Shown: positions 25,387 to 34,038 of the stretch, piece by piece
How the letters are laid out: the number at the start of each line of letters is the position of its first letter
Numbering within the stretch: position 1 is the stretch's first letter
From: an uncultured Thermoplasmata archaeon
GTDB lineage: Archaea; Thermoplasmatota; Thermoplasmata; RBG-16-68-12
Length of the DNA stretch: 64,000 bases
Direction of reading: 5' to 3'
NCBI GenBank assembly: GCA_963768855.1
Contig: CAVYJM010000011.1
Location: forward strand, 1 to 64,000
The notes under the pieces: model-generated
Seen by the model: only the letters and a program-made list of their open reading frames with translations
Told to the model about the DNA's origin: nothing
Database searches by the model: none
Position numbers and translations under genes: made by a program

Positions 25387-26415
25387 ATGGCGAAGGCGAA
25401 ACGGGGTGTGGCTCGCTCGCGGAAGACGGATCGCGCCGGCCTGCTCGAGCGCCTGGAAAAAGGAATTGTCCTCGGGGACGGCGGCTACCTCCTGGAACTG
25501 GAGAAGCGCGGATATGTCCAGGCCGGACCCTTCACCCCGGAGTGCGTGCTGGACCACCCTGAGGCGGTGACGGAACTCCATCGGGAGTTCGTCGATGCCG
25601 GTGCGGAGTTCCTCCAGGCCCTCGCCTTCTACGCGAGCCGCGACAAGCTCGCCACGACCGGTCACCAGGACGACGCGAAGGCGATTAACCGTCAGGCGGT
25701 CCGCCTCGCCCGGAAGGCGGCGGGTCCCGACACCCTGGTCGCGGGGAACCTCAGCCTTACTTGGGCCTACGATGCGAAGGACGCGAGGTCGGCGAACCGC
25801 GTCCGGAAGCTCTTCGACGAGCAGCTCGAGGTCCAGCAGAGGGAGGGCGTCGACTTCGTCGTGGCGGAGACGTTTTCCTGGTTGGGAGAGGCGCTGCTCG
25901 CAACCGAGCGGATCAAGAAATCGGGGGCCGTCGCCGTGGTCACGATGTCGTTCGACAAGAAACCCCTCTCCTACGACGGCCACACCCCGGCTGAGTGTGC
26001 GCACGCCCTTCGGGACGCCGGTGCCGACGTCGTGGGGGTGAACTGCCTCCGGAACCCCTTCTACATGCTCCCGATCGCCGAGGAGATGCGGCGGGCCGTC
26101 ACGGGGCACGTCGCATGCCAGCCGACGGCCTACCGCACCCCGGCCGATCAGCCGGATTTCACCGCCGCAAAGGAGTTCCCGTTCGAGACCGAGACGCTCC
26201 TCCTCTCGCGGCGCGACATGGCCGCCTACGCGAGAGCGGCGCGCGACCTCGGCCTCGACCTGATTGGCTCGTGCTGCGGCTCCCTTCCCGTCCACGTCCG
26301 GGAGATGGCACGCGCCCTGGGGAAGCGGTCCCCGGACCCCGAGTGGCGGGTGGACTACGGGAAGCCGATGTCCGCGTACGAGTACTACGGCCACGGCCGG
26401 GACGCTGCCCCGTAG
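25387..26415 (+). CDS. Homocysteine S-methyltransferase family protein (BHMT-like)
   Basis: DGGYLLELEKRGYVQAGPFTPE, VGVNC and IGSCCG zinc ligands. Confidence 0.88.
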   Translation: MAKAKRGVARSRKTDRAGLLERLEKGIVLGDGGYLLELEKRGYVQAGPFTPECVLDHPEAVTELHREFVDAGAEFLQALAFYASRDKLATTGHQDDAKAINRQAVRLARKAAGPDTLVAGNLSLTWAYDAKDARSANRVRKLFDEQLEVQQREGVDFVVAETFSWLGEALLATERIKKSGAVAVVTMSFDKKPLSYDGHTPAECAHALRDAGADVVGVNCLRNPFYMLPIAEEMRRAVTGHVACQPTAYRTPADQPDFTAAKEFPFETETLLLSRRDMAAYARAARDLGLDLIGSCCGSLPVHVREMARALGKRSPDPEWRVDYGKPMSAYEYYGHGRDAAP

Positions 26416-26433
26416 GGCCCCGCTGCGCGGCGT

Positions 26434-26468
26434 TCACCGGAACGGGTTCCCGCAGTAGAAGCAGAACA
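26434..26468 (-). other. Displaced original 3' end of the subtilase gene (FCFYCGNPFR*)
   Basis: Reverse complement reads (A)TG TTC TGC TTC TAC TGC GGG AAC CCG TTC CGG TGA, in frame with the subtilase codons at the right repeat. Confidence 0.85.
26449..26468 (+). repeat. Left attachment-site core CCCGCAGTAGAAGCAGAACA
   Basis: Identical to 32257-32276. Confidence 0.95.
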
Positions 26469-26527
26469 GTTCTCCCGCCGTCCTATGGAGGGGAACCTAT
26501 CCCTTTGGACCGCATAGGCGCGTTTTG

Positions 26528-27307
26528 ATGGAGCGACTTAGGTACTTGACCGCTGTCGAAGCGGCTAGGCTGAAGGACGCTGTCCGGTCCAATCGCGACC
26601 GGGCCGTCGTGGGCATCCTCCTCCATACGGGGATGAGGATAGGCGAGTGTGCGGGCCTCCAGGTGCGGGACTTTGACCAGGAGGCCCAGACGATTCGTAT
26701 CGAGCGAATCGTCGTCAAGACCAACTCGGTCATCGACCGGGCCACCGGGGAACTGCGGGTGAAGCGGCTCGGGTTCCAGAACCTGCACAGCGCGTACAAG
26801 AAGGGGCGGTCCATCTCCCTGGTCCTCCCGGACGGGACCATCAAGGTGGTCATCGCGAGCGAACTGCCGCGGGTCCTCGGGCCGGAATCGGAGTTCGTGA
26901 AGGTCGGGACCAAGGCCCACGGGGACGCGGGCCGCACGGTCCCGCTGACCGACGCGCACACCTGGGAGTACGTCAAGGCCGAGACCGTCGGCCGCGACCG
27001 CACCGCCTGGGCCTGGAGGGCGGGGGCGCAGGGACACGACCGCACGGGCGACGTGGGGCGGTACTCGTACACGGGCATGAGGGACATGGTGATCCGCGCG
27101 ATGCTGCGGGCCGGAATCCCGCACGACAAGGCCCACCCGCATACGACCCGGCACACGTTCGCGGTCCACTTCCTGAAGAACGGCGGGGACCTGCGGACCC
27201 TCCAGCGAATCGGCGGCTGGGCCAACATCAACATGTGCGCCCGGTACCTGGAGTTCGTGACCGAGGACCTGGTCGAAGTCTCGCGGCGGGTCCAGGTGGG
27301 CTACTGA
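26528..27307 (+). CDS. Tyrosine recombinase/integrase (catalytic domain only, with insertion)
   Basis: HTGMRIGE (R), GTK (K), HTTRHTF (HxxR), GGWAN (W), CARY (Y); 259 aa. Confidence 0.93.
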   Translation: MERLRYLTAVEAARLKDAVRSNRDRAVVGILLHTGMRIGECAGLQVRDFDQEAQTIRIERIVVKTNSVIDRATGELRVKRLGFQNLHSAYKKGRSISLVLPDGTIKVVIASELPRVLGPESEFVKVGTKAHGDAGRTVPLTDAHTWEYVKAETVGRDRTAWAWRAGAQGHDRTGDVGRYSYTGMRDMVIRAMLRAGIPHDKAHPHTTRHTFAVHFLKNGGDLRTLQRIGGWANINMCARYLEFVTEDLVEVSRRVQVGY

Positions 27308-27444
27308 TGTTCGCGAAGGCGTACACCGAGACACGGTGGACCGAATCCGGGAACGTGCGACTCCGCATCTACGGGGTGTTCTGGGGACGGTTCGCGTTCG
27401 CGGTCTCGTTCGGCAGGAGGGTGCAGCGTGCCGACGCTCGCTGA
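27307..27444 (+). CDS. Small hypothetical protein (45 aa), coupled to the integrase
   Basis: TGATG stop/start overlap; MFAKAYTETRWTESGNVRLRIYGVFWGRFAFAVSFGRRVQRADAR. Confidence 0.6.
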   Translation: MFAKAYTETRWTESGNVRLRIYGVFWGRFAFAVSFGRRVQRADAR

Positions 27445-27718
27445 AGTCGTGAAGGCCATCGACGCGGACCTGGAGACAGAACGCCTCGCGCTGCTGGCCT
27501 CCATGAACCGGGTCTACGTCGCGCGGCTCCGCATCAGGAAGGCGACCGCCCTCCTGAAGAAGTTGCGGCCCCTGGTCGAAACGGTAGCCATCGAGGCCAT
27601 CGAGGTGCAGGTCATCGAGGGGCCGCCCGTGCCCTGTCCCGAGTGCGCGCGGACCTTCGAGACCGAACAGGGGATGCACCACCACCAGACCGTCGTTCAC
27701 CTCGAACGTTCAAGCTGA
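27428..27718 (+). CDS. Coiled-coil plus C2H2 zinc-finger protein
   Basis: CPECARTFETEQGMHHHQTVVH; AGGAGG RBS before GTG. Confidence 0.8.
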   Translation: MPTLAEVVKAIDADLETERLALLASMNRVYVARLRIRKATALLKKLRPLVETVAIEAIEVQVIEGPPVPCPECARTFETEQGMHHHQTVVHLERSS

Positions 27719-27736
27719 CCTCCCAACACGAGGCTT

Positions 27737-27773
27737 GGCCGACCCGGTCCCCAACCGGGCGGCCCCTTTTTTT
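27737..27773 (+). terminator. Hairpin plus T7 terminator of the integrase operon
   Basis: GGCCG(A)CCCGGT-CCCCA-ACCGGG-CGGCC followed by CC and TTTTTTT. Confidence 0.8.
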
Positions 27774-27912
27774 AGGTGTCGGTCCTGGAAGGCTGAACGT
27801 TCTCCCGTCTTTTGTCGGACGAATGGGATAGTTTCTTCGGTGCCCCGCTCACGGGGTCTCATGGAGGAGCCCCGACGTCTAGGTCCAAGAGCACCGGAGA
27901 AGGGGCCGACTT

Positions 27913-28284
27913 CTAGAGGCCCTGCTGCCGCTGGAATCCCGCTGCCCGGTTCCCGAACACGTACACGAGGCCGACCAGGACACCGGCCCAGAAGATGTTC
28001 CCCGCGTACTTCTGGTAGAGCTCCCGGATCATCATCGTTGTCAAGGGCAGGGGCGGCAGCTTCCCCGGGAGGTTCGCCTCCCGCTCGTGCTCGAGTTCAA
28101 TCTGCCGAGCCGCCGCCTTCGCCGCCAGTTCTCGGAGGGCCGCTTGCTGCTCAGGAGACCGATAGTAGGCACCGTGGTACGTCTGCCGCTCGGGCTGAAG
28201 TTCAATCTGCCGAGCCGCCGCCTTCGCCGCCAGTTCTCGGAGGGCCGCTTGCATCGCAGGAGACCGGTACGGGTAGCCGTCCAT
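27913..28284 (-). CDS. Element protein with tandem helical repeat and C-terminal TM
   Basis: YRSP..QAALRELAAKAAARQIEL twice; IFWAGVLVGLVYVF. Confidence 0.8.
   Translation of the reverse strand: MDGYPYRSPAMQAALRELAAKAAARQIELQPERQTYHGAYYRSPEQQAALRELAAKAAARQIELEHEREANLPGKLPPLPLTTMMIRELYQKYAGNIFWAGVLVGLVYVFGNRAAGFQRQQGL
28094..28252. repeat. Perfect 54-bp direct repeat, period 105 bp (coding)
   Basis: 28094-28147 identical to 28199-28252. Confidence 0.92.
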
Positions 28285-28290
28285 GGACCC

Positions 28291-28563
28291 TCACACCGGG
28301 ACGAACCCGCGTCCTCCGCCGCCAATCGGGGGAGGCGTCCCGCCCGTGCCGCCGGTTCCGCCCGTGCCGCCCGTGCCGCCGGTTCCGCCCGTGCCGCCAG
28401 TCTCGCCTCCGCCCGTGCCGCCAGTCTCGCCAGGGCCGAATTCGCCGACAGTAGGCACGGACACTCGTGGTCCCATCCAGAAGCCTACAGGGTGCTCTAG
28501 CGACCACGCGCGGGCCACGGTCTCCGCCGCCGCCAACAGGTCCAGTAGTCCCGTGTGCCTCAT
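28291..28563 (-). CDS. Element Gly-rich (GGT)n protein, 90 aa
   Basis: ATGA overlap with upstream gene; MRHTGLLDLL...GETGGTGGGETGGTGGTGGTGGTGGTGGTGGTPPPIG. Confidence 0.7.
   Translation of the reverse strand: MRHTGLLDLLAAAETVARAWSLEHPVGFWMGPRVSVPTVGEFGPGETGGTGGGETGGTGGTGGTGGTGGTGGTGGTPPPIGGGGRGFVPV
28337..28433. repeat. 9-bp-unit degenerate tandem repeat encoding (GGT)n
   Basis: CCGCCCGTG/CCGCCGGTT units with synonymous variation. Confidence 0.8.
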
Positions 28564-29087
28564 GCCAAACCCACCGCCCTCAGGAACGTGCCGATGAGCG
28601 GGCCGACCTGCGGCCCGAAGATTTCCCGCAGCAGGTCGTCCTCCGTGATGGCCGCGATTTCCGCCTCGGTCTCCGTGCTGCCGTACCGGCTGCTGGCCCC
28701 TCCGCCGAACGGTGTAGCCCTCCAGAAGTTGTTCCAGGCGTTGTCGAGGCCCGCCCACAGGTCGTCCGCGATGTCCACCCCGACCCAGCCCGCGACCCCT
28801 GCCGCGAGCAGGGCGAACGCCTGAGGGTCGGAGCGGTCGATGAGGTGTTCGAGGAGGCCCGCCGCGCGGTCCATCTTGAGGCGGGCCTCCGCCGCCGCGC
28901 GTTCCTGCGCGGACAGTTCCGACGGCGAGTGGTGCGCCGCCTCGCCCTTCATCCACTTGCGGCGCTGCGCGGGCGTCAGGACGTGGTACCACAGATTGCC
29001 CGCGACCTTCTCCGGGTCCGCGGCGGTCCCGCTCTCCCGGATGGCCTTGACCGCCGCGTCCCAGTACGCCTTCGGCGGTCGGTTCAC
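28560..29087 (-). CDS. Element hypothetical helical protein, 175 aa
   Basis: GTGA overlap with upstream stop; NRPPKAYWDAAVKAIRE...DPEKVAGNLWYH. Confidence 0.8.
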   Translation of the reverse strand: MNRPPKAYWDAAVKAIRESGTAADPEKVAGNLWYHVLTPAQRRKWMKGEAAHHSPSELSAQERAAAEARLKMDRAAGLLEHLIDRSDPQAFALLAAGVAGWVGVDIADDLWAGLDNAWNNFWRATPFGGGASSRYGSTETEAEIAAITEDDLLREIFGPQVGPLIGTFLRAVGLA

Positions 29088-29281
29088 GATTTCGGTCCTC
29101 CGAACGCCTTGCTGAGCGCAACCTGTTGTACCGCCGCGTGCGCAGTCCATCCGCCGAGGCCCGCGAGTGCCGCGATGACCGCCGCGAGCAGGGTGCCGTC
29201 CTGTCCCATCAGGAGGGCAACGCCCTCAATCACGGTCAGGCATCCCATCGCGAACAGTGCCTTCACGGTGTTGTCCTTCAC
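29084..29281 (-). CDS. Element small two-TM membrane protein, 65 aa
   Basis: Two hydrophobic helices; GTGA overlap; GGAGG RBS. Confidence 0.8.
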   Translation of the reverse strand: MKDNTVKALFAMGCLTVIEGVALLMGQDGTLLAAVIAALAGLGGWTAHAAVQQVALSKAFGGPKS

Positions 29282-30264
29282 TGGTTCAGTCCTCCGAGGC
29301 GGCTCAGGTCCGCGACCATGAAGTCGTCGAACAGCATGGTGGCGGTCGCCGCCGCGTCCGTCTCCACGGTCATGTCTACCGCGGTCCAGTTGATGGTCGC
29401 CGCCCCGACGTTCTGCGCCGCGGGCCGCGCCGTGGGCTCCCAGATCGCGTCATCGATGCGGGCCGACACGTAGTTCAGGTACGGGCCCGGCTGCTGCTTG
29501 TAGGCGAGTTCCACCACGAGGAGGTGCCACAGGTCCGTGTCATCCATGGGGTACGTGATGCCCGTGGACTGATAGGTCCCCGCGGAGTCCAGGTACTCCA
29601 GGGCGAAGCTGTCCGCACCCCCCTGTCTCCGGTGGTAGCGGACCGAGGCGTTGAACTCGCGGGCCGCGTCGCGCAGGTTCACCCGGAGCCACACCGACCG
29701 CCACGCGGCCGACGCGTTCGGGTTGAAGAACACCGCCGCGAAGACGGTCGGGTTCCTGTTGAACCCCTGGTCCGCCGCCCGGAGCATGGGCTTCCGCGCG
29801 GTCCCCAGGTCGCCCGCCGCCGCGCCCGCCGCGCGGCTCGCCACCGTCAGGTTGTGAATCCCGGAGTGCCCCTTCGTCGCGCCGATCGCGAGCGTCCCCG
29901 CCGCCGGAGAGCCCGCCTCGGCGTAGTTGCTAACGATGGAATTTTCGAAGTCGTCCATGTGGAGGACGCGCCCTGCCGGGTTGTTCGACCACCACGGTTC
30001 GAAGCCCGACACGCGGAGCCGCCGCGCGTGGTCCATCGTCATGTCGTACCCCTGGTTGTCCGGGACCGAGTTCGCGTACTGCCCGAAGGCTCCGAGGTGG
30101 AAGATGCCCGCCTGGTCCATCGTCCCGATGGGATAGACCCCGGTCAGGTCTAGCTTCTTCTTGATGCGGAAGGACTCGAGCAGCTGACCCAGGTTCGCAA
30201 GCTGAATCTGGTCCCCGCCCGCGAACTCCAGGGCGTCAGCCGTGTCCGTGACCGCCTTCGACAT
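29278..30264 (-). CDS. Element beta-rich protein with ConA/LamG-like C-terminal domain (putative spike or adhesin)
   Basis: LHMDDFEN...LWHLLVVEL...ARIDD...MLFDDFMV pattern; fold is inferred. Confidence 0.7.
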   Translation of the reverse strand: MSKAVTDTADALEFAGGDQIQLANLGQLLESFRIKKKLDLTGVYPIGTMDQAGIFHLGAFGQYANSVPDNQGYDMTMDHARRLRVSGFEPWWSNNPAGRVLHMDDFENSIVSNYAEAGSPAAGTLAIGATKGHSGIHNLTVASRAAGAAAGDLGTARKPMLRAADQGFNRNPTVFAAVFFNPNASAAWRSVWLRVNLRDAAREFNASVRYHRRQGGADSFALEYLDSAGTYQSTGITYPMDDTDLWHLLVVELAYKQQPGPYLNYVSARIDDAIWEPTARPAAQNVGAATINWTAVDMTVETDAAATATMLFDDFMVADLSRLGGLNQ

Positions 30265-30276
30265 GAGGAGGTCCCC

Positions 30277-30864
30277 TCAGTAGTAGACGATGGCCTGGTT
30301 CGTGTTCGCTGCGCCCGACGTGGACAGCAGAGTCAGGTTCGGCGCGGCCTTCAGGGTCGGCGCGGCCAGGACGGGCGTCCGGTACGTCATCGCCTCGGAC
30401 TCCGTGACCCACTGAAGCGCCCCGGTCTGCGGCCACTTCCAGCGGCTCGTGGACGCGGAGCAGTAGGCCGTGATGCCCTTGGGCGAGGACTGGCCCTGGT
30501 CGTAGGTGACGGTCACGCTGAAGTCGGCCTCCGCGCCCGCCGCCGTCCTCGCGAACCGGATGGCCCGGAAGGCGCTGATGGGCTTGCCTCCTTGGCCCGC
30601 GTCCGCGAAGTGCAGGACCGCCGACGACAGCCCACCGTTGAACGTGAACGTCGGCGTGGTGGACCCGAGCGGTCCCCAGGCCACGTCGAACTTGTCGTAG
30701 CCGTTCAGGGGCGACGGGAAGTGCGCGACCGCGATACCGTCGTACACCGTGGAGAGCGACCCCGGGGTCGCGCCTCCGTACACCTCGATCGCGACCAACG
30801 TGAGGCCTTGGACCGGGAGGGACACGACCCCCGTGGCGGTGAGGCGAGTGCTGTGCTTCAACAT
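30277..30864 (-). CDS. Element beta-rich protein, 195 aa (putative virion protein)
   Basis: Alternating hydrophobic strands rich in T/G/S/A, few long helices; ATG directly after the upstream TAG. Confidence 0.75.
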   Translation of the reverse strand: MLKHSTRLTATGVVSLPVQGLTLVAIEVYGGATPGSLSTVYDGIAVAHFPSPLNGYDKFDVAWGPLGSTTPTFTFNGGLSSAVLHFADAGQGGKPISAFRAIRFARTAAGAEADFSVTVTYDQGQSSPKGITAYCSASTSRWKWPQTGALQWVTESEAMTYRTPVLAAPTLKAAPNLTLLSTSGAANTNQAIVYY

Positions 30865-31014
30865 CTACGCCGCCTCCGCGTGGGGCTTGGCTCGGATGAC
30901 CCCGCCCTGGTCGTTCACGATCACGCCCGGGCACCACTCGCCCTTCATCAGGGTGCGGTTGCCGTGGTCTTTGCAGACCCAGTATCCGGTGTCCTTTTCG
31001 ACCACCAGGACCAC
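30865..31014 (-). CDS. Element 49-aa protein with Cys/His (below the ORF-track cutoff)
   Basis: GTG 3 nt after the upstream stop and TAG abutting the next ATG; VVLVVEKDTGYWVCKDHGNRTLMKGEWCPGVIVNDQGGVIRAKPHAEAA. Confidence 0.7.
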   Translation of the reverse strand: MVLVVEKDTGYWVCKDHGNRTLMKGEWCPGVIVNDQGGVIRAKPHAEAA

Positions 31015-31017
31015 CCC

Positions 31018-31458
31018 CTAGAAACTGCCTCCGCTAGGTCCCGCGAAGGACCGGATGATCCGGTTCGCGAACGCGACTCCCATCTTCACGCCCTTCACGA
31101 CGAACATCGGGCCGTACCCCACCGCGAGCCGCTGAGGCTCCCAGGTGTTGGTCGCCACGTTGTACGCCGTTAGGTTGCCCGAAAGAGCACCGAGCCCGAC
31201 GACGAGACCTTGCCGCAGGTCCCCCGCCGCGAGCCCCTCGACCGCGGCCTCAATCAGTCCGGTGGACTTCGCAATCGTGTTCGCGATTGGTGCCAGCCGG
31301 AACGAGTAGTGCCGCGTGCCCTTCTTCCCACCGCCGCCACGCCTTCCGCCGCCCTTTGCCATGTGCTTCTTGCCTCCAGAGGACCGGCCCCGACCGTGCT
31401 TCTGCTGCCAGTCGTACAGAGGGTTGCCGGGTCCCCACTTCTTGCCTTTTCGTGCCAC
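31018..31458 (-). CDS. Element protein with basic Lys/Arg/Gly N-terminal arm (candidate nucleocapsid protein)
   Basis: MARKGKKW...GRGRSSGGKKHMAKGGGRRGGGGKKG then amphipathic/hydrophobic helices; GGAGG RBS. Confidence 0.8.
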   Translation of the reverse strand: MARKGKKWGPGNPLYDWQQKHGRGRSSGGKKHMAKGGGRRGGGGKKGTRHYSFRLAPIANTIAKSTGLIEAAVEGLAAGDLRQGLVVGLGALSGNLTAYNVATNTWEPQRLAVGYGPMFVVKGVKMGVAFANRIIRSFAGPSGGSF

Positions 31459-31470
31459 CTAAATCCCTCC

Positions 31471-32040
31471 CTAGAACGGGAGTTGTTCGCCCCCTCCTCC
31501 GGTCAGCGCGGCGGGCAGTTGCAGTCCGCCGTTGCCTCGCGCCCGCAACAGTAGCGGGCCGTACTGGACGGCGGCCTTGGAGATTCGCCGCGCGGACTGT
31601 TGGCTGACGCCGAACATCTCCAGGAGACCTTCGAGCATTTCCGGGCCGAGGTCCGCCGCGACCGCCATCAAGTCAGCCTGTCCGATTGCCTGTTCCGCGT
31701 CTGGGGGGAGGAGAGAGGAACCCTGAGAGGAGCCGCCCTTGGAGCCGAGCGACTTCATGCGAATCGAGGTCCAGAACGTGTCGATTGCTGGAGCGATGAT
31801 AGGCTTGACGAGGTTCGGGTCCTTCGCGAATTCGGACATGGTCATGCCCACGAGTTTCCCGAACCCGCGACGGATGGCCGACGCGTCCGCGTCGCCGTCG
31901 TCCCCGAGGTGATCCACGGTCGCACGGAGCCGATTCATCACGTACCAGGGCGCGACGTACCGCGCCATCGTGTAGGACCACACGACCGCGAACAGCCAGC
32001 CTACCGTCTGAAGGACGCTGACCACGTCGAAACCGACCAC
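31471..32040 (-). CDS. Element N-terminally membrane-anchored protein, ~189 aa
   Basis: GGGTG RBS before GTG at 32040; TM LQTVGWLFAVVWSYTM; the ORF track extends it to a TTG at 32157. Confidence 0.75.
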   Translation of the reverse strand: MVGFDVVSVLQTVGWLFAVVWSYTMARYVAPWYVMNRLRATVDHLGDDGDADASAIRRGFGKLVGMTMSEFAKDPNLVKPIIAPAIDTFWTSIRMKSLGSKGGSSQGSSLLPPDAEQAIGQADLMAVAADLGPEMLEGLLEMFGVSQQSARRISKAAVQYGPLLLRARGNGGLQLPAALTGGGGEQLPF

Positions 32041-32232
32041 GCGAACACCCGCTGAGCGCGACGGCAGCGACCAAACAGCGAGGTTCCAGCGCGGAGCGAC
32101 CGACTCTGAACCGCCTCGTCGCCGCCGCGCTGTCGGCGCATCGCCGTTTCCACTCAAAAAACGCGTGCCGACGACCCAGCAAATTTTGCCCGCGTTCCTG
32201 GCCCTAACGTTCTCCCGTGTTCCTGGGCCCCT

Positions 32233-34038
32233 TCAGGGCCCGGACCCCATGGAGAACCCGCAGTAGAAGCAGAACATGTTGTCCGCATTCACCAGGGTGC
32301 CGCAGTTGGGGCACCGCTTCTTTGCCGCGACGGTCGAGGCGGGGGGAGGCGCGGCCGGTATGGGGGGCGGAGGCGGAGTCACGGGCTTCACGAACTCGAT
32401 CGGCGGGGGGGCCGGTGTGTACGTCTGCGTCTGCACGTTGTGCGGATAGGACGCGGTCGGTGGACCCGGAGGCGGGCCGGGAGGCGGGGCGCCGTAGCTG
32501 TAGGCGGGCGGCATCACGGTCCTCTGGCGGTATGCCGCGGTCCGGCGCGCGCGGGCGCGACGCTGGGGAACGAACGCGACGATCGCCGCGAGGGCGAGGA
32601 TGAACAGGGCGAGGTAGAGCAGGTTCGAGGACAGGAACTGGTAGAGTACGAAGAGGAAGTTGGGGAGGGGCGAAACCGCGATCGTCCTGACGGGCGACTC
32701 GTAGCGAGTCCCGTTCACGGTCGCCACGACCTTGACGGAGAGCGGGATGCCGGAATCGGGCATCACGAGGTTCGTGGCGCTGTAGGACTGACGTGTCGTG
32801 CCCGTCTGGACCGCGGTAACGTTATTCAGGGCCGCCGGGTCCGTCCCGTACACGACGTGGGTGTCGGTCACCGGGAGTCCCGCCGGCCCGATGATCGACC
32901 AGCCGATCGAGAATGTGGAACCCTTAGCGACGCTACCTGGGATGTTGTTGAGGGAGATGAAGGGCTGGTTGAGGGCGTTGACCCCGTTCCACGCGTTGAC
33001 GATCCCCCAGCCATATAGAGTGTTGTACCCGGTGCTGCCCGTCGGCACTGCGGTCTGGTTCAGGACGTTCCACAGCTCGACGTTCGTCAGGCTTGGCTCG
33101 AGGGAGAGGAGAAGCGCGGCGACGCCGCTCACGAAAGGTGTCGCAAGCGAAGTCCCGTCCAGGTTGTGCCAGCCTCCGCTCGTGGGCGGGCAGTTCGGAC
33201 AGAGGGTCACGATCTGGACGCCGGGTGCGCTGAGGGACAGGCCCGGGCCGTAATTGGAGAACACAGCTCTCGTGTTCGTCTGTCCCACGGCGGCGACGGA
33301 GACCACGTTGGGGAGGGATGCGGGGTAATCGAGAGTCGAGCTGCCGGAGTTCCCCGCGGCGGCGATGACCAAGGCGCCCTTGCTCCATGCGTAGTTGATC
33401 GCGAGCTCGATGTCGGTCGGTCCGATGAGGGTCGTGTTCGTCCCGAGGGAGAGGTTGATGATCCGCGCCCCGTGGTCCGCGGCCCATCGGATTGCGAGGG
33501 AGGTGTTGTAGGACGTGCCCTCGCCGTTCGCCCCCAGAGCTTCGAGCGCCATGACGCCCACCTGCCCGACTTGGGCCACTCCCGCCATCAGCTTGTTGTT
33601 GTTCGTCGCGGCCGCGATGACGCTCGCGACGCCCGTGCCGTGGTACGTGTTCTGGGCGCCGTCCGAATCCATCGGATTGTTGTTGTTCAGGATGAAGTTC
33701 CAGCCGTGCGACCCGTCCGTGTTGTTCCACATGTTCGGGGCGATGTCCGGGTCCGTGTACCACACGCCCGTGTCGACGACGGCGACGATAACCTTCTGGC
33801 TGCCCAGGCCGACATTCCAGGCCTTCGGCGCCTCGATCGTGTTCAGTCCCCACTGGAAATTGAAGAGGGGATCGTTTGGGGTGTACGCCGCATGCAGCGG
33901 GATGTCGGTGATTACCGCAGGAGGCACGCTGGCCGCCCGAGTTACGACGGGAGCCGCGAGCGAGACGAGCAGCGTGAGGACCGCAATGATCGCGACGGAG
34001 GTCCGTGAGAGGGAGCGCACAGAATCGGCTTGCTGCAA
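32233..34038 (-). CDS. S8 subtilase with signal peptide, TM anchor, Pro-rich linker and C-terminal zinc ribbon
   Basis: VAVVDTG (D), HGTGVAS (H), AAAGNSG, GTSLATP (S); CPNC...CFYC. Confidence 0.95.
   Translation of the reverse strand: MQQADSVRSLSRTSVAIIAVLTLLVSLAAPVVTRAASVPPAVITDIPLHAAYTPNDPLFNFQWGLNTIEAPKAWNVGLGSQKVIVAVVDTGVWYTDPDIAPNMWNNTDGSHGWNFILNNNNPMDSDGAQNTYHGTGVASVIAAATNNNKLMAGVAQVGQVGVMALEALGANGEGTSYNTSLAIRWAADHGARIINLSLGTNTTLIGPTDIELAINYAWSKGALVIAAAGNSGSSTLDYPASLPNVVSVAAVGQTNTRAVFSNYGPGLSLSAPGVQIVTLCPNCPPTSGGWHNLDGTSLATPFVSGVAALLLSLEPSLTNVELWNVLNQTAVPTGSTGYNTLYGWGIVNAWNGVNALNQPFISLNNIPGSVAKGSTFSIGWSIIGPAGLPVTDTHVVYGTDPAALNNVTAVQTGTTRQSYSATNLVMPDSGIPLSVKVVATVNGTRYESPVRTIAVSPLPNFLFVLYQFLSSNLLYLALFILALAAIVAFVPQRRARARRTAAYRQRTVMPPAYSYGAPPPGPPPGPPTASYPHNVQTQTYTPAPPPIEFVKPVTPPPPPIPAAPPPASTVAAKKRCPNCGTLVNADNMFCFYCGFSMGSGP
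32257..32276 (+). repeat. Right attachment-site core
   Basis: Identical to 26449-26468; lies inside the subtilase zinc-ribbon codons. Confidence 0.95.

Follow-up and report, generated by a model that had tools for sequence, protein, structure and literature searches.

A 5,808-bp insertion lies in the last codons of a subtilase/zinc-ribbon gene on contig CAVYJM010000011.1 of an uncultured Thermoplasmata archaeon (assembly GCA_963768855.1), within the 64,000-nucleotide stretch that we analysed at its full length (the window). The insertion is bounded by exact copies of the 20-bp sequence CCCGCAGTAGAAGCAGAACA, which occurs exactly twice in the window, whereas no copy is expected by chance (0 of 100 shuffles). 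The features of the locus, in window coordinates, are:

26434-26448, minus strand: displaced original end of the subtilase gene (codons N-P-F-R-stop), cut off from the gene by the insertion
26449-26468: attL core, a 20-bp direct repeat that encodes (M)FCFYCG on the minus strand
26469-26477, plus strand: GTTCTCCCG arm motif next to the core, whose first 7 bases (GTTCTCC, 26469-26475) are the inverted partner of GGAGAAC at 32251-32257
26525-27307, plus strand: tyrosine integrase of 260 aa, consisting of the catalytic domain only, with an insertion of about 65 aa between the catalytic Arg and Lys
27307-27444, plus strand: possible 46-aa ORF (uncertain)
27428-27718, plus strand: 96-aa protein with a C-terminal C2H2 zinc finger, a candidate regulator
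27737-27773: GC-rich hairpin followed by seven T, between the convergent gene sets, a likely terminator
27799-27807, plus strand: third internal copy of GTTCTCCCG
27913-28284, minus strand: 123-aa protein with two 35-aa tandem repeats and a C-terminal hydrophobic helix
28291-28563, minus strand: 90-aa protein with a (Gly-Gly-Thr)n tract, whose start overlaps the preceding stop (ATGA)
28560-29150, minus strand: 196-aa protein (start codon uncertain) of the most widespread cargo family, F1
29084-29281, minus strand: 65-aa protein predicted to form a hairpin of two hydrophobic helices, a candidate membrane or virion matrix protein
29278-30264, minus strand: 328-aa protein with a flexible N-terminal part of about 90 aa containing one helix, then a predicted concanavalin-A-like lectin/glucanase beta-sandwich (residues about 95-322), a candidate receptor-binding or shell protein
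30277-30864, minus strand: 195-aa protein that looks beta-rich from composition alone, a candidate virion protein
30865-31014, minus strand: 49-aa ORF with two Cys
31018-31458, minus strand: 146-aa protein with a Lys/Arg/Gly-rich N-terminal arm (pI 11.3) and a hydrophobic body, a candidate DNA-binding protein
31471-32157, minus strand: 228-aa first gene of the operon, with an N-terminal membrane helix followed by a body that reads as helical from the sequence
32153-32190, minus strand: A/T-rich box (AAAATTT and a T-run) about 25-30 nt upstream of the TTG at 32157, inferred to be the promoter of the cargo operon
32209-32217, plus strand: GTTCTCCCG arm motif, 40 bp from the core
32251-32257, plus strand: GGAGAAC, the inverted partner of GTTCTCC at 26469, whose last C is the first base of the 20-bp core
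32257-32276: attR core, a 20-bp direct repeat, now part of the subtilase reading frame
32233-34038, minus strand: host target gene, an S8 subtilase with a C-terminal zinc ribbon, whose last 7 residues (FSMGSGP) are supplied by the element

We first asked whether the reading frames are well supported. The integrase starts at 26525 (TTG) or 26528 (ATG), 57-60 bp inside the left repeat, and matches PF00589 at E 1e-23, as well as phrog_216 and phrog_1. In an alignment with its relatives, R38, K130, H206, R209 and Y241 are invariant and W233 is conserved in 16 of 18 relatives, so that the full catalytic set is retained. The integrase and the 96-aa zinc-finger ORF are well supported by third-position GC (GC3) of 0.87-0.91, the latter (0.87) giving only weak hits, below the Pfam cut-off, to zf-C2H2 families, whereas the 46-aa ORF (GC3 0.85) has no relatives. 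The hairpin and its seven T were read directly from the sequence, and a consensus scan did not list them. Nine minus-strand ORFs were confirmed, with gaps of -4 to +12 nt, one apparent 67-nt overlap that depends on which start codon the 196-aa ORF uses, and GGAGG-like sites upstream of most. Their GC3 is 0.76-0.94 (0.92 for the 49-aa ORF), against 0.54-0.65 in the competing frames, and no frameshift is visible. The arm motif GTTCTCCCG occurs 6 times in the window against 1.4 expected, with 3 copies inside the element. The initial annotation had described an intact unit between identical repeats, with a recombinase beside the left repeat, three plus-strand ORFs ending in a terminator and nine closely packed minus-strand ORFs, and this observation is confirmed.

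To understand how the element came to lie here, we compared the locus with other genomes of the host genus. The target gene matches PF00082 (E 7e-54) and Zn_ribbon_3, and orthologues are present in 21 of 24 congeners searched. In seven species of the genus the two flanking genes are adjacent with nothing between them, ten congeneric orthologues end in a close variant of FCF[FY]CGNPFR and a stop, and joining the window's flanks restores the conserved C-terminus FCFYCGNPFR and stop. The element is single-copy in the genome. Neither the integrase, searched in 79 genomes of the order including the window's own, nor the 328-aa protein, searched in 41, was found elsewhere in the order. The core lies 57 bp upstream of the intact 260-aa integrase ORF, and the gene stays whole on integration, as for non-partitioning (pNOB8-type) integrases and unlike the SSV type. 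When public contigs were compared with the locus, an identical contig spanned the attR junction, but neither an attP joint for this copy nor an empty attB was seen. This absence would fit a decaying or domesticated island that no longer moves. However, we consider that reading very unlikely, since the repeats are identical, all eleven ORFs are open with host-like codon bias, the integrase keeps its catalytic residues, near relatives are circular with the same core, and the element was not found in the other 78 genomes of the order searched.

The integrase has about 20 close relatives (46-76% identity), almost all on metagenome contigs of 4.7-7.9 kb. Among ten that we retrieved (family loci are labelled L058, L059 and so on), terminal k-mer overlaps of 30 or 55 nt mark five as circular contigs of 4.9-7.9 kb. 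Circular L060 carries the identical 20-bp core between element arms, which is an attP. L059, for which no circularity was shown, differs at 1 base and carries the core variant found in the attB of other species of the host genus, and circular L058 differs at 3 bases. The arm motif next to the core is conserved in position in the attP of L058-L060, and the arm motifs and promoter-like box are alignable among the three. A second integrated copy lies at another site in a contig of the same genus. Family members assemble as abundant stand-alone circles in several unrelated samples. These results together make it nearly certain that this is a mobile integrative element with a circular stage, although circular contigs show an extrachromosomal form and not a particle.

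The cargo keeps its gene order and protein architecture, including the order of small membrane proteins and beta-rich proteins, while its sequences change quickly, and positional analogues in relatives could not be shown to be homologous. Family F1 occurs in the window, L058, L060, L064, L066, L067 and L068; six of the seven other members share a central membrane helix, where the window's copy has a weaker hydrophobic stretch. The 65-aa protein has a homologue in L067, and small proteins of about 50-66 aa occupy this position in L058, L059, L060, L063 and L070. The 195-aa protein has only 9 family members among 5.8 billion proteins, mostly on contigs of 3.3-5.6 kb, and is present in L059, L061 and L063. 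The 146-aa protein shows short similarities in L063, L059 and L070, and an Atlas feature score of 0.92 to unnamed, mostly viral clusters; feature searches of three cargo proteins in all point to mostly viral clusters. The first cargo genes of relatives (families F2 and F5, and partly F19) share the N-terminal membrane helix of the 228-aa protein.

The 328-aa protein, the one cargo protein for which a model was obtained, has 35 homologues and is predicted by AlphaFold2 (pLDDT 79.7, pTM 0.73) to fold as a concanavalin-A-like sandwich, with fold matches at Z 14. Its closest Atlas structures are unnamed clusters that are 88-100% viral (TM 0.80), its nearest structural neighbours being unnamed proteins of tailed viruses, and one homologue lies beside a tailspike-like gene and an endolysin in a tail or host-recognition module of a phage-like contig. 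However, the lectin fold is common in cellular proteins and does not by itself show a virion role. The protein is also predicted to self-associate, with a score of 0.58 against a best control of 0.00. This mark was reached by 20 of 30 proteins solved as pairs and 1 of 23 solved as single chains, counts that hold only roughly here because the calibration used two copies and its own alignments; runs agree in at least 39% of contacts and partner pLDDT is at least 72. Carbohydrate-binding modules of phage baseplates and distal tail proteins, such as phage J-1 Dit CBM2 (PDB 5ly8) and the mycobacteriophage Douge baseplate (8zdo), have the same sandwich as residues 95-322 (Z 13.0-13.1, 186-189 residues aligned). 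Nevertheless, sequence identity is only 8-9%, cellular lectins and glycanases score as high (Z 14), and no tail genes are present in the element.

We next searched for hallmark genes, related elements and CRISPR spacers, some of which had been named beforehand as tests of the provirus reading. The cargo has no hit in Pfam, PHROGs, NCBIfam or PADLOC, searches of PDB sequences likewise revealed no capsid or virion protein, and no Walker A or HUH motif occurs in any protein of the 12 family loci scanned. No capsid protein, portal, packaging ATPase or other virus hallmark was identified. No relative was found in IMG/VR, among GenBank phages and archaeal viruses, or among PLSDB plasmids, and no CRISPR-spacer-like match was found in 79 genomes of the order. 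The lack of a virus hallmark gene and of a relative in IMG/VR leaves possible, though doubtful, a cryptic integrative plasmid, a cryptic integrated element in the sense used for Thaumarchaeota, in which the circle is only an excision product or a low-copy episome and the operon encodes not a virion but cell-surface and membrane proteins (adhesin, lectin) that would change the host envelope or mediate contact-dependent or vesicle-borne transfer. In line with this rival, several cargo proteins have membrane anchors and lectin sandwiches are frequent in cellular surface proteins, including a Thermoplasmatota cluster among the Atlas neighbours (row 7). In contrast, none of the family loci scanned has a replication initiator, partition, toxin-antitoxin or transfer gene, including the primase-polymerase, helicase, MCM or rolling-circle Rep of integrative plasmids of the pRN/pSSVi and pT26-2/pTN3 types; PLSDB gave no match; the best structural and sequence neighbours of the 328-aa protein are viral; and this protein has no signal peptide or membrane anchor, which a surface adhesin would need.

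A satellite that integrates on its own but is packaged and spread by an unrelated helper virus is neither supported nor excluded, and we regard it as unlikely. The element is very small and lacks replication and packaging genes, and the tail-module homologue suggests that the 328-aa protein could decorate another virus's particle. However, a search limited to HK97 capsid and portal families gave no hit in the 93.6%-complete assembly, the operon is dominated by membrane and beta-rich proteins and lacks the regulators, replication genes and packaging-redirection genes typical of known satellites, and the family forms stand-alone circles.

Thus, we interpret the element as an intact, recently integrated copy of a previously undescribed family of small (4.9-7.8 kb) circular elements of GC-rich, uncultured Thermoplasmata, made almost wholly of unknown genes. 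A minimal temperate virus is our preferred reading, but only about as likely as not. Our analysis shows that a catalytic-domain-only integrase recombined a 20-bp core on the circular element with the identical sequence in the last codons of the host gene, that the host gene stays open with a new 7-residue tail, and that close relatives exist as free circles carrying the same core between the same arm motifs. The remainder is inference: after excision, the nine-gene operon would be read from a promoter beside attP and make the particle, namely a basic-arm protein that coats the DNA, several small membrane-anchored proteins and two beta-rich proteins; the 328-aa protein would form oligomers and bind a glycan on the host surface; replication and any packaging would depend on host functions, because no family member encodes a recognisable replicase or ATPase; and the zinc-finger protein next to the integrase is the likely regulator. 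The initial annotation's proposal of a minimal provirus or satellite with structural rather than metabolic or defensive cargo, possibly from an undescribed virus group, is partly supported. The intact integrated element with a working-looking integration module is strongly supported, and its membership of an undescribed group is also supported, as relatives form a small family found only in metagenomes with no link to any described virus, plasmid or transposon. The structural cargo and viral nature are supported only indirectly, by the one lectin-fold protein with viral relatives, the conserved order of membrane and beta-rich proteins, and the lack of replication, partition, transfer or defence genes.

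Among small archaeal viruses, Aeropyrum pernix bacilliform virus 1 (APBV1, Clavaviridae) has a 5.3-kb circular dsDNA genome with 14 ORFs, no recognisable replicase and a small helical-hairpin major protein, and the element resembles it in size, circular topology, almost entirely orphan genes, lack of a replicase and presence of a small protein predicted to form two helices (the 65-aa ORF). APBV1 has no integrase, is not known to integrate and differs in host phylum and habitat; nothing in the GenBank phage and archaeal virus collection matched the element, and, with regard to the APBV1 major protein VP1, phmmer of the 65-aa protein against PDB sequences gave only chance-level hits. Pleolipoviridae, including the temperate SNJ2 (PMC5861418) and relatives in Thermococcales (PMC10919331), have small genomes of 7-17 kb and non-lytic membrane-vesicle virions built from a few membrane proteins, and some integrate through a tyrosine integrase; several cargo proteins here are membrane-anchored. 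Yet no cargo protein matches pleolipovirus spike (VP4-like), internal membrane protein (VP3-like) or NTPase families in PHROGs or Pfam, there is no Walker A motif and no large spike with a signal peptide and C-terminal anchor, and the proteins tried gave no tblastn match in GenBank viruses. The pSSVi and pSSVx satellite plasmid-viruses of Sulfolobus are about the same size (about 5.7 kb) and are packaged by SSV helpers, and pSSVi integrates by its own integrase, but they carry a large primase/helicase-type replication protein and self-splitting SSV-type integrases, whereas here the integrase gene stays whole and there is no replication protein.

The element also fits the cryptic integrated elements of archaea (Krupovic et al. 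2019, PMC6563490), a class defined by exclusion into which most integrated elements of Thaumarchaeota fall, in that it is an integrated multigene element with an integrase and no virus, plasmid, casposon or conjugation hallmark. In organisation it resembles members such as NitEve-E2 of Nitrososphaera evergladensis, which are small integrase-bearing insertions with short att repeats and no hallmark genes that integrate into the 3' end of a protein gene with replacement of the stop region, and NitEve-E2 even targets a zinc-finger protein gene. The element described here differs in its host phylum (Thermoplasmatota), and its family is documented with a free circular form and its attP, multiple members and a conserved gene order.

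We first examined the boundaries and gene content of the candidate element. The 20-mer CCCGCAGTAGAAGCAGAACA occurs exactly twice in the window, whereas none is expected by chance, and the unit with one core is 5,808 bp. Third-position GC separates real from shadow frames in this 67%-GC DNA, and it supports the integrase, zinc-finger and cargo genes among the following features:
26449-26468 and 32257-32276, the two copies of the 20-bp repeat
26525-27307, plus strand, integrase
27307-27444, a possible 46-aa ORF
27428-27718, plus strand, 96-aa C2H2 zinc-finger ORF
27737-27773, a GC-rich hairpin plus T7 that separates the convergent gene sets
32157 down to 27913, minus strand, nine ORFs forming the cargo operon
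26434-26448, just outside the left repeat, the orphaned codons NPFR* of the target gene
32233-34038, minus strand, the target gene, encoding a 601-aa S8 subtilase with a C-terminal zinc ribbon
The minus-strand ORFs have gaps of -4 to +12 nt and GGAGG-like sites upstream. The GC of the element (67.4%, against 66.4% for the window) and its codon bias match the host, and it was therefore rejected as a compositional island. Thus, the observation in the initial annotation, an intact integrated unit between identical repeats, holds.

The right repeat lies in the last codons of the subtilase gene, where, on that strand, the core encodes (M)FCFYCG. The gene now ends FCFYCG-FSMGSGP*, with the tail supplied by the element. 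Orthologues of the subtilase occur in 21 of the 24 congeners searched. In seven of them, the subtilase is directly adjacent to the betaine-homocysteine methyltransferase-like gene that flanks the left side of the element here, with nothing in between. Ten orthologues end in a close variant of FCF[FY]CGNPFR*, six of which read NPFR exactly, and joining the two flanks of the window reproduces that conserved end. This excludes the scenario that the initial annotation had named as refuting its reading, namely fixed chromosomal genes without flanking repeats. The target subtilase has an unusual build that is conserved across the genus (window 32233-34038 and orthologues L005-L015), with a signal or anchor region, an S8 domain, a membrane helix, a Pro-rich linker and a C-terminal zinc ribbon that would face the cytoplasm. 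The element swaps the four residues after the second CxxC knuckle for a seven-residue tail of its own.

The element is single-copy in its 2.87-Mb assembly. The 328-aa cargo protein was not found in 40 relatives, and the integrase was not found in the other 78 genomes of the order searched. Public runs that hold parts of the locus are wetland and freshwater-sediment metagenomes. Among their assembled contigs, the freshwater-sediment run X1 holds identical pieces, including the attR junction, but no attP or empty-attB joint was seen for this strain. In wetland run X2, contigs about 3% diverged from the flanks (25900-26590 and 32137-32800) sit at depth about 40, while bins inside the element (26593-32136) sit at 0-7. 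This may indicate a related strain without the element, although it is only a hint, since contig depths cannot be ranked.

To test whether the element belongs to a family, we searched 5.8 billion proteins with the integrase and found about 20 relatives at 46-76% identity, nearly all on contigs of 0.9-7.9 kb. One relative comes from Chocolate Pots hot spring. In contrast, scans of collections of genome contigs and metagenome contigs with the integrase alignment were swamped by generic bacterial integrases and returned no family member. Of the ten relatives whose loci we retrieved, five are on contigs with terminal overlaps equal to the assembler's k-mer length (30 or 55 nt), and they are therefore circular. 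A 20-bp att repeat cannot close a circle at k = 31, so these are not collapsed proviruses.

Unit sizes of the circular family members (locus, bp).
L058, 4,904
L060, 4,981
L064, 6,808
L066, 7,452
L065, 7,822

Circular L060 carries the identical 20-bp core, flanked on both sides by element sequence and not by host sequence, and the core is followed by CTTCTCCCG...TATGGAGGGG, as in the window. L059, another family locus, carries CCCGCAGAAGAAGCAGAACA, the exact attB variant (FCFFCG) of five other species of the host genus, whereas L058 differs at three bases. The region around the core aligns among all four elements, including a [G/C]TTCTCCCG motif next to the core, another about 40 bp away, and an A/T-rich box upstream of the first cargo gene. 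This is a conserved attP, and it ties the circles to this host genus.

A second integrated copy, L061 (9850-15100), lies at a different site in a 99.9-kb contig of the same genus, between a 2-oxoacid:ferredoxin oxidoreductase operon and herA. Topoisomerase VI subunit A of the window's assembly is 96% identical to that of the contig behind L061, and the 90%-identity cluster of that protein holds NCBI proteins labelled "Thermoplasmata archaeon". The att repeats of L061 could not be fixed, as only a GC-rich 12-mer recurs. The integrase cassette is inverted relative to attP and the cargo operon in the window, L061 and the family locus L063, compared with L058, L059, L060 and L064-L068, indicating that an inversion happened within the family.

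The integrase contains all catalytic residues (R38, K130, H206, R209, W233 and Y241). The protein starts about 37 residues before the first catalytic Arg, so there is no separate N-terminal core-binding domain. About 65 residues are inserted between the Arg and the Lys hairpin (at about 26708-26905), and an insertion, variable in length and sequence, is present there in all 18 aligned relatives. It may replace the missing DNA-binding domain. The best named model is archaeal XerA at 84 bits, against a cut-off of 220. It is a divergent family. The gene is not split by integration, which rules out an SSV-type element. A transposon or insertion sequence was rejected because the element has a tyrosine integrase with a site-specific 20-bp core and not a target duplication, and a casposon was rejected because there is no Cas1.

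None of the nine minus-strand proteins, and none of ten representative proteins from relatives, matches Pfam, PHROGs, NCBIfam, PADLOC (no defence family), IMG/VR, PLSDB plasmids or, for the proteins tried, GenBank phages and archaeal viruses. Sequence searches of the PDB with the 65-aa, 146-aa and 195-aa proteins gave only chance-level hits. No protein in the 12 family loci scanned has a Walker A or HUH motif. Gene families are mosaic. The integrase is universal. The 196-aa family (F1) occurs in seven elements; in six of the seven other members it has a central membrane helix, while the window's copy aligns mainly through an N-terminal motif shared with L058 and L067. The 195-aa family occurs in four elements, and in only nine proteins of 5.8 billion, mostly on contigs of 3.3-5.6 kb. 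The 65-aa two-helix protein occurs in two.

Elsewhere, non-homologous proteins of similar size occupy roughly the same positions. The typical order, with some positions missing in individual members, is a protein of about 200 aa, usually with an N-terminal membrane helix and a body that reads as helical from its sequence; a small protein, which is basic in the window's copy; a protein of 135-200 aa; a protein of 240-340 aa; a small protein of about 50-66 aa, a two-helix hairpin where examined; and a protein of about 160-225 aa, a membrane protein where it belongs to F1. Profile-profile comparisons could not prove that these positional analogues are homologous. They were mostly negative, linking only cargo families F2 and F19, family F16 and the L059 protein L059_2441, and, weakly, the 146-aa protein.

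We next analyzed the 328-aa protein. A word-based search found only the protein itself, whereas an exhaustive search found 35 homologues with E-values down to 3e-33. AlphaFold2 from the single sequence gave an unusable model (pLDDT 33), but with the alignment of homologues it gave pLDDT 79.7 and pTM 0.73. In this model, residues about 95-322 form a concanavalin-A-like lectin/glucanase sandwich. Matches at Z 14 with 176-182 residues aligned include the Vibrio cholerae sialidase lectin domain, Cip1 and a Bacillus galectin-like protein, and matches at Z 13.0-13.1 include phage J-1 Dit CBM2 and a mycobacteriophage baseplate protein. The closest ESM-Atlas structures are three unnamed clusters that are 88-100% viral, with TM 0.78-0.80 by target and rmsd 2.5-2.7 Å over about 219 residues. 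A feature search agreed, at 0.97 to an 82%-viral cluster. The protein has no signal peptide or membrane anchor.

A profile of the 328-aa protein found its family in L070 and L071, two loci that encode homologues, but in none of the loci retrieved through the integrase. In L070, the homologue sits in the same gene order as here. L071 (1-8209) is a phage-like fragment (49% GC) that carries an endolysin (phrog_3513, E 1.8e-11), then a 492-aa pectate-lyase/tailspike-like protein, and then a 378-aa homologue. The lectin family is therefore shared with an unrelated virus. The 328-aa protein is also predicted to self-associate, as three copies scored 0.58 against a best control of 0.00. The mark was reached by 20 of 30 proteins solved as pairs and by 1 of 23 solved as single chains, although the calibration used two copies and other alignments, so these counts hold only roughly. 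Runs agree in at least 39% of contacts, and partner pLDDT is at least 72. The predicted interface is head-to-tail and one copy is hardly engaged, which hints at a larger ring or lattice.

These results together provide direct evidence that this is a mobile, site-specific integrative element with an extrachromosomal circular stage, and of this we are highly confident. That the circle is a virus genome is, by contrast, an inference, which we consider about as likely as not. Thus, the interpretation in the initial annotation, a provirus-sized unit with structural-looking cargo that may represent an undescribed virus group, is only partly supported. The viral affinities of the only modelled protein, the conserved structural-looking operon, the rapid turnover of its genes, the complete absence of plasmid functions and the recovery of discrete circles from several unrelated samples favour a virus. 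However, we found no capsid and no packaging enzyme, there are no particle data, a CRISPR-spacer search across the order gave only chance-level short hits, and the family is absent from curated virus collections. The main rival is a cryptic integrative plasmid, which we regard as possible but unlikely. A satellite is also possible, though more doubtful still, and the assembly shows no HK97 capsid or portal gene.

Integration into the 3' end of protein genes, even of a zinc-finger protein gene, is known for archaeal elements (PMC6563490, PMC8371274), and the integration mechanism is therefore ordinary. What is new is a whole family of tiny circular elements of Thermoplasmata, made of unknown genes and without replicase or ATPase, together with a documented match between attP and attB and a protein of predicted lectin fold and viral type. 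The class "cryptic integrated element" fits by exclusion. Clavaviridae and Pleolipoviridae are the nearest analogies in size and style, but no homology was found.

Thermoplasmatota are abundant in soils, wetlands and sediments, yet almost no viruses or proviruses are known for them, and a 2026 survey found only 30 provirus regions in 5,041 Thermoplasmatota and 2,275 Nanobdellota genomes together (PMC13573593). Standard virus-detection tools rely on hallmark genes, and this family has none, so such tools would miss it. Here, the family is tied to a host genus by an exact attP/attB match and has complete circular genomes and an intact integrated copy, which makes it possible to ask how a 5-kb element can persist and spread with no replicase or packaging enzyme. 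It also offers a compact integrase with a 20-bp target inside a protein gene, and a set of unknown proteins that may build a new kind of particle. If particles were shown, it would be a new virus family for this phylum. In a bolder hypothesis, which we hold to be somewhat less likely than not, the element and its relatives are a new family of archaeal viruses, unrelated in sequence to any described group and the first for this soil and wetland Thermoplasmata lineage. Their circular genomes of about 5-8 kb encode neither a replicase nor a packaging ATPase, and the particle would be built from a lectin-fold protein, a basic DNA-coating protein and a handful of small membrane proteins. These would be among the smallest temperate double-stranded DNA viruses known.

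The family also includes L068 (1-13781), a 15.3-kb metagenome contig that holds two diverged family units head to tail, with no host genes. Their integrases are 33% and 48% identical to that of the window, and the arrangement may be a co-integrate, a tandem integration or an assembly walking twice round a mixed circle. In the window, two repeat-bearing small genes (27913-28284 and 28291-28563) lie at the end of the operon. One has a 105-bp tandem duplication encoding a 35-aa repeat, and the other has a 9-bp periodic array encoding (Gly-Gly-Thr)n, which attracts many unrelated metagenome contigs in mapping to the locus.
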